From assembly GCA_965218695.1 (NCBI GenBank), contig OZ244651.1:1984001-2048000 (forward strand): DNA of 64,000 nucleotides, read 5' to 3'. The translations under genes and the position numbers were made by a program. The notes under the pieces were generated by a model that ran no database searches, was not told where the DNA came from, and worked only from the letters and a program-made list of their open reading frames with translations. Each line of letters starts with the position of its first letter. Positions within the stretch are counted from its first letter, which is position 1. Of the stretch, positions 26,754 through 30,227 are shown one piece after another. This DNA is from Nitrosopumilus sp. (GTDB lineage Archaea; Thermoproteota; Nitrososphaeria; Nitrososphaerales; Nitrosopumilaceae).

Positions 26754-26790
26754 CGCAAACTCTTTATGGGCTGTTTTGGGACTCGTTCCC

Positions 26791-27306
26791 ATGAAACCCT
26801 TCGTTCTCTGGATGACCGGCCTGCCATGCTCCGGCAAGACCACCATTGTAAAGGATCTGCAAAAGGACATTCCAAACCTTGCAATGCTTGACGGGGACGA
26901 GCTTCGGGAATGGTTCTCCCCCAAGGACTTTTCAAAGGCCGGACGGGACGAACACAACAAGCGGGTTGCGCACCTAGCAAAACTGCTGCTAAAGCACGGG
27001 GTTCCAAGCGTAGTCTCCCTGGTGTCCCCGTACTTAGAGAACAGATCAAGTGCTAGGTCGATTGTGGATGCAGGCAACCAGTTTGCCGAATGCTATGTGA
27101 AATGCTCGCTTGAAAAATGTGAGGAGAGAGATGTCAAGGGTATGTACGCCAAGGCAAGAAGAGGAGAGATCAAAGGGTTTACCGGAATTGATGACCCATA
27201 CGAGGCTCCGGAGAATGCCGACCTCGTAGTTGACACCGAACACGAGCCCCTCTCAGACAGCGCAGACAGGGTAAGAGGCTTTCTCAGTGAGAGAGGCCTG
27301 CTTTGA
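26791..27306 (+). CDS. cysC: Adenylyl-sulfate (APS) kinase
   Basis: WMTGLPCSGKTT, LDGD, RDVKGMY, FTGIDDPYEAP. Confidence 0.95.
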   Translation: MKPFVLWMTGLPCSGKTTIVKDLQKDIPNLAMLDGDELREWFSPKDFSKAGRDEHNKRVAHLAKLLLKHGVPSVVSLVSPYLENRSSARSIVDAGNQFAECYVKCSLEKCEERDVKGMYAKARRGEIKGFTGIDDPYEAPENADLVVDTEHEPLSDSADRVRGFLSERGLL

Positions 27307-28147
27307 AATCCTTTAGAATCCTTTCATGAATTAGTCCGTTTGTAACCAGAATTCCGTTTCGATGCCGCACATCCATGTTGTTGTACGTGATGTCGTTCCC
27401 TGACATGTCAGTCATCCTTCCCCCGGCCTCCAATATGATGCAGTACGATGCCGCAGTGTCCCACTCCTTCATCATGGTAGTGGTGGTAATGTATGCCTCG
27501 GCCAGGCCTGAGCCGATCTTTGCAACCTTTAGCGAGCTGCCAACACTTGTAAAGTTATCAATGCCCAGACTCCCGATAAACGCCTTCTCAGCCGGGGACA
27601 GGTGGTGCCTTGAGCCCACCGCCCTGCACTCTGAGATATCTGAGATGGCAGTAACCGACATCCTCTCCCATGCCCCTTTAGAGCAGTACCTGTATGCGCC
27701 ACACCCCCCCTGTGCCACAAACAAAGCCCCTTCTGCAGGCCAGCTGATCACCCCCAGCACCGGCAGCCCATTCCTTACCAGCGCGATCATCACCGTAAAC
27801 TCGCCGGTCCTGTCGACAAAATCCGAAGTCCCGTCGAGCGGATCCACTATCCAAACCGTATCCTCTGAAAGTCTCTGCGGATCATCTGCATCCTCCTCAG
27901 AAAGTATCACGTGTCCGGTCTGCCTGAGAACCCCCTTGATAACCTCATTGCTTGCAAGATCAGCCTCGGTAACCGGGGAATTATCCGCCTTTGTCGATAC
28001 TGCAAAGTCCCCCCGATAGATCTCCATGATAATGCCCCCTGCCCTGACTGCAGCCTCCACGGCAGCGTCAAGATCCGGGATCCGGTCTGGCAGCGGCAGG
28101 CCTGACAAGATCTTCCCTAGGTCGTCAGTTCCGGTTTTAGCGTCCAT
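27284..28147 (-). CDS. cysQ: 3'(2'),5'-bisphosphate nucleotidase (start may be ~28108)
   Basis: SPVTEAD, LSEE, WIVDPLDGT, GSSLK, EWDTAA. Confidence 0.92.
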   Translation of the reverse strand: MDAKTGTDDLGKILSGLPLPDRIPDLDAAVEAAVRAGGIIMEIYRGDFAVSTKADNSPVTEADLASNEVIKGVLRQTGHVILSEEDADDPQRLSEDTVWIVDPLDGTSDFVDRTGEFTVMIALVRNGLPVLGVISWPAEGALFVAQGGCGAYRYCSKGAWERMSVTAISDISECRAVGSRHHLSPAEKAFIGSLGIDNFTSVGSSLKVAKIGSGLAEAYITTTTMMKEWDTAASYCIILEAGGRMTDMSGNDITYNNMDVRHRNGILVTNGLIHERILKDFKAGLSH

Positions 28148-28341: not shown

Positions 28342-28571
28342 GCTGTATTAAATTCATGTTCATTGGCAGATCTTTTGGAACCCCTATCCCGGGATGCGTC
28401 TGCCAGATCTGCCATCGATTTCCTGCCATTCCGGGCGATCCTGCAACATGCGTGTTATGGCATGTAATTTACACCCCATTACCTAGAAACGAACCCAAAA
28501 CATCCAATAAAGTTATTAAAAAATTGAAATTTATTTAACTAAACCTTAAATAGTTAAAATTCCTATACATG

Positions 28572-28696
28572 TTGATGCCGATGGATGCAACTTCTATCGA
28601 CTAACCCGGCGTAGCCCCGCAGAACAAAAAGGCGCTCAGAGTATCTGACAGCAAGAGGAAATCTCTTAAAGTTCTGCCGTGAAGGGGGTACGCCTC
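28572..28696 (+). ncRNA. Candidate structured RNA with 9-codon micro-ORF
   Basis: TATA CCTTAAATAG upstream; helices CGATGGA/TCTATCG, GGCGTA-CCCC/GGGG-TACGCC, GCAGAAC/GTTCTGC, TCAGA/TCTGA, AAGAG/CTCTT. Confidence 0.55.
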
Positions 28697-29143
28697 TTAT
28701 TTCTTCAAAATGTCTACAGAGACCGCACCGTTTACGTCCCCGTTTGGATCAACAACTATTACCATCTTCCCACCAATTGGAATTGAAACGGTCTTCTGTC
28801 CGTCATAGTCCCAGGTAAAGTACTCTGAGATGCCTGTCTCCTGCAGCGTGCTCCTGAGCCTGAACTCCTCGTGGAAGTCAAGATCCTCCCCGATTAGCAT
28901 TATCGACAGGATCTCCGGACTACTCCCGTTTGGAACGAACCCAAAGACATACTCCCCGCTATCTGCTGTAAACGAGTTGGTGAAGACACCGTTCTTGTAC
29001 AGGCTGGGGTCTGCGAGGGTCGCATGAAACACGGCCTTGCTTTTGTCAGGTGAGTCTAGCGAGCTACCACTTACTATGGCGATTACGGCTATGACTGCCA
29101 GCGGAATTATTATCTTCCTGTCCATGGGATCAGTCAGGCGCAA
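28697..29143 (-). CDS. Membrane-anchored hypothetical protein
   Basis: N-terminal hydrophobic anchor followed by a beta-rich domain. Confidence 0.7.
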   Translation of the reverse strand: MRLTDPMDRKIIIPLAVIAVIAIVSGSSLDSPDKSKAVFHATLADPSLYKNGVFTNSFTADSGEYVFGFVPNGSSPEILSIMLIGEDLDFHEEFRLRSTLQETGISEYFTWDYDGQKTVSIPIGGKMVIVVDPNGDVNGAVSVDILKK

Positions 29144-29501
29144 TATTATAAAAACGAACTTTGAATTGTTACGTGCTTTTACGCCTTGGTGCCGGCCAGA
29201 AATTTATGTGATTCCACACCACGCATCCGGGGTCTCAAACCCAACTGCCCGTTTATAATGGAACGTTGCAGGGAACGCCTTGCCAGATCTTCAAACCGTT
29301 CTGTGCATTTGGGACTCTTCAAAATCGTGGATCTTAGACAAAACTCATCCAACCAATATGCGTCAGATTACCTTATTTGAACAGAGCCGCATTTGGGGTG
29401 GCGTACAGGGCATGCCCCAAATTACTCCCAGAACTGCAGGCCTCATGCCGTGGCATGTCCGTCAGGCCTAGCCGTTCACGTACACCCCCGTGACGCTGCC
29501 C

Positions 29502-29557
29502 ATTCTTGTTAGTGAAATTTTATGTACTGTTAATCAATATTTACACCTGAAATTAAG
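29502..29557 (+). promoter_or_regulatory. cdvB promoter module (TGT-N12-ACA plus ATTAAG TATA-like box)
   Basis: 39/56 ungapped identity to the region upstream of the second cdvB paralog. Confidence 0.65.
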
Positions 29558-29579
29558 TACGAACTACACGACCGTGATC

Positions 29580-30227
29580 ATGCCCAGTATGAGCGATAAG
29601 TGGTCAAAGCAACCAAAGCCAAGCATGTCCGATAAGATTAGTGATACCTTAAAACCCAAAGGTCCCCTGAAACCACGGGTTCAGCGCGCAATTGGCAAGC
29701 TACGACTGCAGACAAAGAAATTGGATTCCATGCTTGGTAACCTGCAGGAGCGTGATACAAAACTCTTCAAGAGAATTGTAGAGGCAACGCAAAAACACGA
29801 TGTCCAGACCAGCAGGGTTCTTGGAAACGAGCTGGCCGAGATCAGAAAGGTCACAAAGATTCTAAGCAGTGCCCGAATTGCGCTGGAGCAGATCGAACTG
29901 CGTCTTACTACCTGCCAAGATCTTGGAGACACGGTGGTGGCAATCATGCCAACGATAGGCCTTATGAAAAACCTGAAGACGTCCCTAGGAAAGGTAATGC
30001 CCGGGGCCGAACGGGAGATTGGCCAGATGGCAGACATGCTTGGTGGCTTCATGACTGAGAGTTTTGCAGGCGATGCCACGTTCGGACTTGACGATTCAAC
30101 CAACATCGAATCCGAAAACATCCTCAAGGAGGCTGCCGCCGTTGCTGAAAGTTCTACCAGCCAGATGTTCCCGTCGGTTCCATCCGAAACTGCCGGTAAG
30201 GCAAACTCGCTCAACTCCGAATATTAA
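29580..30227 (+). CDS. ESCRT-III (CdvB/Snf7) paralog
   Basis: PLKPRVQ...LQERD..LFKRIV...NELAEIRK...LEQIELRLTT...LGD; ILKEAAAVAE. Confidence 0.92.
   Translation: MPSMSDKWSKQPKPSMSDKISDTLKPKGPLKPRVQRAIGKLRLQTKKLDSMLGNLQERDTKLFKRIVEATQKHDVQTSRVLGNELAEIRKVTKILSSARIALEQIELRLTTCQDLGDTVVAIMPTIGLMKNLKTSLGKVMPGAEREIGQMADMLGGFMTESFAGDATFGLDDSTNIESENILKEAAAVAESSTSQMFPSVPSETAGKANSLNSEY

Follow-up and report, generated by a model that had tools for sequence, protein, structure and literature searches.

A candidate uncatalogued small RNA family with a nine-codon reading frame in the Nitrosopumilaceae

The Nitrosopumilaceae are marine ammonia-oxidizing archaea, for which, to our knowledge, hardly any RNA regulator has been described. 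The question taken up here is what is encoded by a short intergenic region of one member of this family, Nitrosopumilus sp. (GenBank assembly GCA_965218695.1, contig OZ244651.1), in which a TATA box, an open reading frame (ORF) of nine codons and a segment capable of folding into a three-way junction follow one another on the plus strand. The region lies in a stretch of 64,000 nucleotides (nt; positions 1,984,001 to 2,048,000 of the contig, forward strand), hereafter the window, and coordinates below refer to the window unless a genome label precedes them. An original prediction, made from the letters of the sequence, proposed that this region holds an undescribed regulated small RNA or a micropeptide-RNA system, and every sequence feature that it described is indeed present. 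The part of the proposal that concerns an independent, uncatalogued small RNA (sRNA) gene is borne out by the dedicated TATA box, the T-rich end and the covarying junction, but the operator regulation and the functional micropeptide are not. The explanation we favor, which we regard as evenly poised between right and wrong, is that the locus codes for an uncatalogued, translation-coupled, stand-alone sRNA of about 125-130 nt, extending from 28575 to approximately 28700 on the plus strand and constituting the type A member of a family with three paralogous types.

Fold, promoter and 3' end of the candidate RNA

Folding of the 91-nt domain at 28606-28696 yielded a structure with a minimum free energy (MFE) of -39.0 kcal/mol, which is identical to the three-way junction of the original prediction. 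Dinucleotide shuffles of the same segment had a mean of -23.3 kcal/mol (standard deviation 3.05), giving a z-score of -5.14, with none of 200 shuffles equaling the native value. When the 5' hairpin was folded along with the domain the z-score was -3.34, and the complementary strand of the domain returned -1.67, with 12 of 200 shuffles equaling it. The features to which the argument refers are as follows:

28534-28558, strandless: inverted repeat TTTAACTA-N9-TAGTTAAA around the TATA box, with arms at 28534-28541 and 28551-28558
28546-28552, plus strand: TATA box TTAAATA, its first T lying 29 nt upstream of the A in the ATG
28575-28604, plus strand: mini-ORF in leaderless position, nine codons and TAA (ATG CCG ATG GAT GCA ACT TCT ATC GAC TAA; MPMDATSID)
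28579-28585 and 28593-28599, plus strand: arms of the 5' hairpin within the mini-ORF (CGATGGA/TCTATCG, 7-nt loop), from the MFE fold
28608-28694, plus strand: three-way-junction domain, from the MFE fold and the alignment of 90 copies
28608-28613/28689-28694 and 28615-28618/28684-28687, plus strand: closing helix P1 (GGCGTA-G-CCCC/GGGG-G-TACGCC)
28619-28625/28671-28677, plus strand: inner helix P2 (GCAGAAC/GTTCTGC)
28626-28631, plus strand: A-rich joiner of the junction
28636-28648, plus strand: variable hairpin of the junction
28653-28667, plus strand: conserved hairpin P3
28695-28706, plus strand: T-rich tail TCTTATTTCTTC, a presumed archaeal oligo-T terminator, overlapping the end of the converging gene (last codons and stop)
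28697-29143, minus strand: converging family-specific gene of 148 amino acids (aa), with an N-terminal hydrophobic segment and an all-beta domain, the tail-to-tail partner of type A

In the alignment of 90 copies of the RNA, standard pairs fill 93.6% of 2999 cells and compensatory changes, altering both sides, occur at 26 of the 34 base pairs. None of 500 shuffles attained any of the five pairing measures, and sliding the partner columns by 1-3 positions as a control lowered the pairing to 34-52%. Thus, the junction as originally drawn is upheld by covariation in relatives as well as by a stability beyond chance. Folding each copy alone, free of any alignment, closed the terminal helix in 90 of 90 copies and produced exactly two inner hairpins in 89, with a median z-score of -5.3 and values below -2 in 88 of the 90. 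The 5' hairpin that lies within the mini-ORF (helix 1) is 82.2% paired in the alignment and has changes on both sides at five of its six pairs. Pairing of the reverse complement reaches 89.3% versus 93.6% on the plus strand, where 170 cells are G-U; this asymmetry, together with the position of the promoter and of the T-rich tail, places the RNA on the plus strand. Across the genus, P2 and P3 (the latter GAGAG-GAAAU-CUCUC) are near-invariant in sequence, which points to sequence-specific recognition of these elements.

The promoter is conserved in an equally regular arrangement: of 87 copies, 79 have TTAAATA 29 nt upstream of the ATG, 70 of them exactly and nine with a single mismatch; the distance is 28-30 nt in 86, and a purine directly precedes the ATG in 73. 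The center of an archaeal TATA box lies about 26-27 nt upstream of the transcription start, and the conserved spacing therefore suggests that transcription would begin with the AUG or 1 nt upstream, so that the RNA would be leaderless. In a looser scan of the protein-coding genes that flank the locus in relatives, TATA-like hexamers formed their largest cluster 27-29 nt before the ATG (14 of 125 ORFs), which is consistent with leaderless mRNAs in this family; a strict motif scan of the window gave too few matches to be informative (3 of 140 frames). At the other end, 62 of 87 copies have four or more consecutive T in the 16 nt that follow P1.

The original prediction had described the promoter as flanked by an operator. 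We find the palindrome at the homologous position to match at 8 of 8 positions in just one of 87 copies, that of this genome, at 7 of 8 in one other and at no more than 6 of 8 in the remaining 85. Its right arm, TAGTTAAA, lies within conserved promoter-proximal sequence and its left arm, TTTAACTA, is not conserved; moreover, inverted repeats 8 nt or longer whose gap does not exceed 12 nt number 245 in the window. The repeat is accordingly best seen as a chance feature of this genome, and an operator-controlled promoter was rejected for lack of any conserved palindrome around the TATA box. The remark that no protein-coding gene follows on the same strand is correct, the next long ORF (28697-29143) being on the opposite strand, and the same arrangement is seen for type A and B paralogs. 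The frame that stays open for 25 codons after the TAA is present here, but cannot be conserved, as the spacer between stop and helix measures 3, 4 or 5 nt among the copies; this variation also rules out read-through of the TAA into that frame.

As for expression, a sponge metatranscriptome provided an RNA library with 6% of the sampled words, from which an unstranded contig of 175 nt, derived from a relative, covers 28587-28759 at 93% identity (12 other letters). It begins 12 nt inside the predicted RNA and extends 60 nt past the presumed terminator into the neighboring gene, and the 1101 nt examined around the locus had no other cover in that library. The contig is a weak hint of expression, and fixes neither a transcript nor its ends.

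Distribution, paralogs and the converging neighbor

In its own genome (2.63 Mb, nine contigs) the region matches only itself by BLASTN, and a covariance model adds one divergent paralog to this one full copy. BLASTN within the same genus found a homolog in 23 of 24 genomes, with two copies in several of them; the remaining genome is 78% complete. We then extended these searches with three covariance models, built respectively from 31 genus copies (R1), from 90 copies (R2) and from the copies of a divergent paralog termed type C (R3). The E-values of these models are rough, and since the genome sets are samples, absence throughout means not found among those searched. Of 151 family genomes, R1 recovered the RNA in 136, spanning 25 of the family's 27 genera (133 of 148 if three matching genomes flagged as unpublished, G117, G132 and G133, are set aside), and in 13 of 14 family genomes of a second sample, but in none of 106 genomes across 19 other families of the order. 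R2, applied to another draw, found it in 80 of 80 family genomes and in none of 70 genomes across 11 other families of the class; without G117 the tally is 79 of 79 in the family and 80 of 150 overall. Thus, the conservation in relatives on which the original prediction hinged is found in nearly all genomes of the family, and as far as searched the RNA appears to be restricted to the Nitrosopumilaceae. Two genera mark the margins of this distribution. In genus g29, R2 detected weak homologs in both genomes (E ~1e-5); these (L129 and L130, 1501-1632) are G+C-rich (61-62%) and retain the P3 hairpin and the converging 148-aa gene. In genus g21 the RNA was found in none of four genomes by R1 and none of two by R2.

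Genomes carry between one and three paralogous copies, which fall into three types. Type A, to which the copy in the window belongs, adjoins the converging 148-aa gene. Type B adjoins a converging gene with DUF1246 and DUF1297 domains, which ends 75 nt away in the one locus measured. In two type B loci (L039 and L029, from genomes G009 and G015) this gene was not found downstream, and other ORFs without a convincing Pfam family are present in its stead, suggesting an insertion or rearrangement beside the RNA gene; an integrase identity considered for those of L039 received no support from Pfam. Type C, a third and divergent paralog recovered by R2 and then by R3, is present in 43 of 151 family genomes (42 of 150 without G117) and in seven of the 27 genera. 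Its layout is that of types A and B, with a TATA box 28 nt upstream, an ORF separated by 3 nt from a closing helix of 11 bp, and two hairpins, while its interior and its peptide differ from theirs. The type C alignment has 95.7% of cells paired, with many G-U pairs, and compensatory changes at 14 of 31 pairs, a value reached by none of 500 shuffles; the 5' hairpin that the model places in it (84.4% paired) is different from that of types A and B. The type C copy of the present genome lies outside the window, on the minus strand at G000:C1:1050343-1050486, has the mini-ORF MVKHVNFMA, and directly precedes a CTA trinucleotide repeat (CTACTACTAC...). We also observed a tandem arrangement in which two copies of the RNA (L099, G174:C1:1604376-1605102, at 5-124 and 301-427) lie on the same strand about 175 nt apart.

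A homolog of the 148-aa gene converges beside 52 of the 90 copies. In 41 of these 52 the stop codon of the homolog starts 3-10 nt beyond P1, and in five the gene extends inward of the 3' end of P1 by 5-25 nt; in the window, the T-rich tail TCTTATTTCTTC is simply the complement of the last codons and stop of this gene. The protein was found in 14 of 14 family genomes and in none of 106 genomes from other families of the order. It is encoded in both g29 genomes, where it adjoins the weak RNA homolog, and in none of three genomes of g21, in which the RNA was likewise not found. In one genus the RNA and the 148-aa gene are about 10 kb apart. The protein belongs to no family in Pfam or NCBIfam. An AlphaFold model of it (mean predicted local distance difference test score, pLDDT, 84.8) has an all-beta domain behind an N-terminal hydrophobic segment, and a Foldseek search of this model against the PDB returned nothing at E <= 0.001, the weak rows being assorted beta-sandwich proteins. 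The mRNA of this neighbor must presumably extend at least some way antisense into the RNA gene. On the minus strand, the A-run of the joiner (28625-28630) reads as the first run of five T, about 70 nt beyond the stop of the 148-aa gene; if it served as the terminator of that gene, its 3' untranslated region could be antisense to two thirds of the sRNA.

Elsewhere in the window, an adenosine-5'-phosphosulfate (APS) kinase gene (26776-27306, plus strand) and an inositol-monophosphatase-family, CysQ-like gene (27284-28147, minus strand) are convergent, their 3' ends overlapping by 23 nt. On the other side of the locus, a 245-aa ORF (29490-30227, plus strand) resembles the CdvB1/B2 cell-division proteins of the ESCRT-III (endosomal sorting complex required for transport) type, with an NCBIfam E-value of 1.7e-43 that is under the curated cut-off.

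Comparison with catalogued RNAs leaves the family unassigned. Rfam 15 gave no matches at the gathering score over the whole window and none at E <= 10 in 28350-28800, and at E <= 1 the only match in ten relatives' loci, which represent types A, B and C, was an unrelated tRNA. ARAGORN predicted no tRNA or transfer-messenger RNA (tmRNA) gene in the window. These results agree with the original prediction, which did not recognize the element as a tRNA, signal recognition particle (SRP) RNA, RNase P RNA, or C/D or H/ACA guide. A divergent housekeeping RNA is rejected because the 5S, SRP and RNase P RNAs are located elsewhere in the genome. As regards C/D box guides, the alignments display no CUGA near the 3' end, and the 5' end reads UGAUGC here and UAAUGY in many copies; the position of the candidate D box is that of the mini-ORF stop, being UAA, UGA or UAG. 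An H/ACA guide would need a two-sided pocket and a trailing ACA box, but the internal loop here opens on one side only, and what comes after the helix is C and a T-run, not ANA. Full-text searches, for which subscription journals and supplements were largely outside reach, located no description of such an RNA, and the non-coding RNA described in PMC5069720 is one of group II Euryarchaeota, outside this family. What appears to be new here is hence an sRNA family that carries a short ORF and is absent from Rfam, though an earlier description may exist.

Conservation of the frame and possible roles of its translation

An ATG-initiated frame is kept in 88 of the 90 copies, having nine codons in 84, eight in three and seven in one, such that all differences in length are whole codons. 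The frame closes with TAA in 62, TAG in 18 and TGA in eight of these 88 copies; no other triplet occurs there, and every one of the copies has a spacer of 3-5 nt between the stop and the closing helix that follows it. The alternative frames contain stops in 71 (+1) and 16 (+2) of the 88 copies. Among the 70 distinct nine-codon sequences, just two of 1000 column shuffles were stop-free throughout. Type C repeats the pattern in 34 copies: 27 have an ATG and nine codons, two have eight codons, and five, as read from the sequences, align a GTG with the start codon and continue for eight codons to a stop; here 46 of 1000 column shuffles were stop-free. In the g29 homologs neither the ATG nor the stop is present. 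One copy that is very rich in A+T (L148, G359:C1:695632-696762, at 501-631; 24% G+C) has a premature stop in its mini-ORF (MLKI*) and may be decaying.

The encoded peptide behaves differently. Over the 70 distinct sequences the share of synonymous differences is 0.103 versus a null of 0.146, and the mean BLOSUM62 score of the peptides is -0.51 as against -0.47 in 1000 column shuffles; neither is better than the shuffles, and no conservation at the amino-acid level was thus detected. The type C peptide is similar in this regard, its synonymous share being 0.059 versus 0.154 in shuffles. These patterns are suggestive of selection on the frame, that is on its start, stop, length and openness, and not on the peptide. 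The nine-codon micro-ORF of the original prediction accordingly stands as a frame conserved across the family, type C included, while the functional micropeptide suggested along with it finds no backing in these comparisons.

How might translation of so short a frame be coupled to the RNA behind it? A ribosome covers several nucleotides 3' of the A-site codon; taken with the spacer of 3-5 nt, these dimensions imply that termination at the mini-ORF stop would require opening of the base of the closing helix. In the scheme that we envisage, a ribosome would load on the 5' AUG, translate nine codons and terminate with its leading edge over the 5' arm of P1, so that ribosome occupancy and the folded junction would be mutually exclusive. 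Selection would then keep the act of translating the mini-ORF rather than its peptide, and such coupling would account for a peptide that drifts within a conserved frame and spacing. Whether the structured 3' domain is stable or active would thereby depend on translation of the mini-ORF, and this domain might be an effector, through binding of a protein or as an antisense to the 3' end of the neighboring gene; alternatively, the junction may serve to stabilize the RNA. The most specific version of this scheme is a ribosome-gated sRNA, in which the terminating ribosome is placed on the closing helix and the RNA reads out the (leaderless) translation capacity of the cell by switching its effector domain, with the converging 148-aa gene as one output. 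This version is tentative, and we consider it rather doubtful.

Several points weigh against a translation-coupled sRNA. The ORF region also folds as a hairpin with compensatory changes (helix 1 above), and two type B copies have lost the ATG while retaining this hairpin through C-G to U-A changes; hence, constraint at the RNA level could account for part of the conservation of the frame. The codon-position entropies (0.78, 1.16 and 1.03 for positions 1, 2 and 3) are not coding-like, and the column-shuffle test ignores relatedness. The pair counts come from model-fitted alignments, which favor the structure, the footprint argument takes ribosome dimensions as given and uses no computation, and the unstranded contig from the RNA library could represent DNA carry-over or mRNA of the neighbor. 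The hairpin and the entropies, together with the lack of amino-acid-level selection and the near-invariance of the type B ORF nucleotides even at third positions, would fit a purely non-coding structured sRNA, whose 5' 30 nt form a hairpin or seed and whose AUG-to-stop frame is an untranslated by-product of RNA constraint and ancestry. This is a genuine possibility, to which we accord a minor share of the probability, as it has to contend with the start codon, the use of three alternative stops and nothing else, the whole-codon steps in length and the open frame of 88 of 90 copies, with stops in the other two frames. It must likewise accommodate the presence of a frame in all 34 type C copies, invariably begun by ATG or GTG, in spite of their different peptide and interior, and a TATA-to-ATG distance fixed at leaderless spacing. 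The opposite proposal, that the locus is a very small mRNA with a functional nine-residue peptide and a junction that protects its 3' end, could draw on the conserved frame and on a loose consensus within types (M-x-[KM]-D-[IVA]-x-[PS]-I-D in A, M-x-K-[RSH]-[AV]-N-[FYS]-x-x in C). It is quite unlikely, as synonymous share and BLOSUM scores do no better than column shuffles in both sets, the three paralog types have unrelated peptides, and the sequence-invariant helices and loops of the junction exceed the needs of a stabilizer.

Other explanations turn on the surroundings of the RNA. It might be a cis-antisense or terminator module for the converging 148-aa gene, acting by duplex formation or transcriptional interference, with the mini-ORF being secondary. 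The convergence at 52 of 90 copies and the tight placement of the stop in 41 of them speak for it, as do the shared taxonomic range of RNA and protein, neither of which turned up in genus g21 (no RNA in four genomes searched and no protein in three), their adjacency even in g29, the most divergent genus, the library contig that bridges the junction between the two, and the opposite-strand T-run that the joiner would supply. However, types B and C keep the architecture beside other genes, RNA and protein gene are separated by about 10 kb in one genus, tail-to-tail packing is commonplace in compact genomes, and the conserved 5' ORF and the sequence-invariant P3 would be left unexplained; we therefore judge this module unlikely. 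A cis-acting riboswitch or leader-peptide attenuator, controlling read-through into a downstream gene, is suggested by the succession of a short leader ORF, a stem and a T-run, and by the complementarity of the joiner to the 3' strand of P1 and the tail (mean duplex energy -6.5 versus -3.6 kcal/mol for shuffled joiners). It is largely refuted by gene order and very improbable: the next gene converges in type A and B loci (for type C only the flanking sequence was read), and the ORF has no run of a single amino acid by which supply could be sensed. In constrained nested folds (a class that does not include pseudoknots) with the 5' strand blocked, the alternative pairing of joiner and 3' end dominates in only 10 of 90 copies; the complementarity hints at an alternative helix that such folds do not support. 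Finally, a chance structure or a mobile repeat of the miniature inverted-repeat transposable element (MITE) type has nothing beyond small size and intergenic position to commend it. One full copy and one divergent paralog in the genome, the latter seen by the model and not by BLASTN, do not resemble a repeat, and with conserved synteny across genera, covariation and a z-score of -5.1 this origin is already refuted and retains next to no probability.

Significance and comparison with known systems

The near-universal presence of this RNA in the family, its up to three paralogs per genome and its sequence-invariant hairpin suggest that it is likely to have a central role. Since start, stop and nine-codon length of the mini-ORF are kept and its peptide is not, the translation-coupled sRNA that we favor would offer a clean test case for leaderless mini-ORF translation as a regulatory device in archaea. 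If the ribosome-gated version were true, it would represent translation attenuation without a downstream cistron, in three paralogous versions, in one of the most abundant archaeal families of the ocean. With the covariance models, the RNA could be annotated both in genomes and in metatranscriptomes.

Among known systems, archaeal guide and housekeeping RNAs resemble the candidate in small size, possession of their own promoter and near-universality within the family, but it has no Rfam match and its alignments contain no D box or ACA box. Cis-encoded convergent antisense pairs are similar in that the 3' tail and the stop of a converging gene overlap, here with conserved synteny; they differ in that the paralogs of the candidate keep their architecture beside other genes, and overlap of the transcripts is a prediction here. 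Like tmRNA, it would unite in one molecule a stop-terminated ORF of about 10 codons and a large structured domain that is conserved. Unlike in tmRNA, the ORF is 5'-terminal with an AUG of its own, the C-terminus of the peptide is not conserved, the ARAGORN search was negative, and neither a tRNA-like acceptor or T-arm nor a 3' CCA context was seen in the sequence.

Closer parallels come from translation-attenuation leaders. The leader ORFs of cat and cmlA comprise nine codons, and the erm leaders likewise act by translation attenuation. In these, as here, a very short ORF directly precedes a stable stem, and the position of the ribosome is coupled to RNA folding, a coupling that for our candidate is proposed from conservation and spacing. 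The leaders act in cis on a downstream gene, whereas no such gene is present on this strand and the ORF has no sensing codons; with a short ORF beside a stem but the regulated downstream gene missing, the candidate is not a member of these leader families. A leaderless start, predicted here, is also described for the polycysteine short ORFs of mycobacteria (bioRxiv 10.1101/834739).

The candidate would likewise work much like the dual-function sRNAs with which we close this comparison. SgrS/SgrT, RNAIII/delta-haemolysin and SR1/SR1P are of this kind, with functional peptides of 26-43 residues and Shine-Dalgarno leaders. The candidate differs from them in having nine codons in a leaderless position and no detected selection on the peptide, and it is not known to base-pair with a target. 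It resembles them as a predicted independently transcribed RNA that joins a short ORF to a conserved structured or regulatory part, and the frame data and the separate promoter indicate that the defining property of these systems, the conservation of a short reading frame as such within an independent sRNA, is present in this family too.

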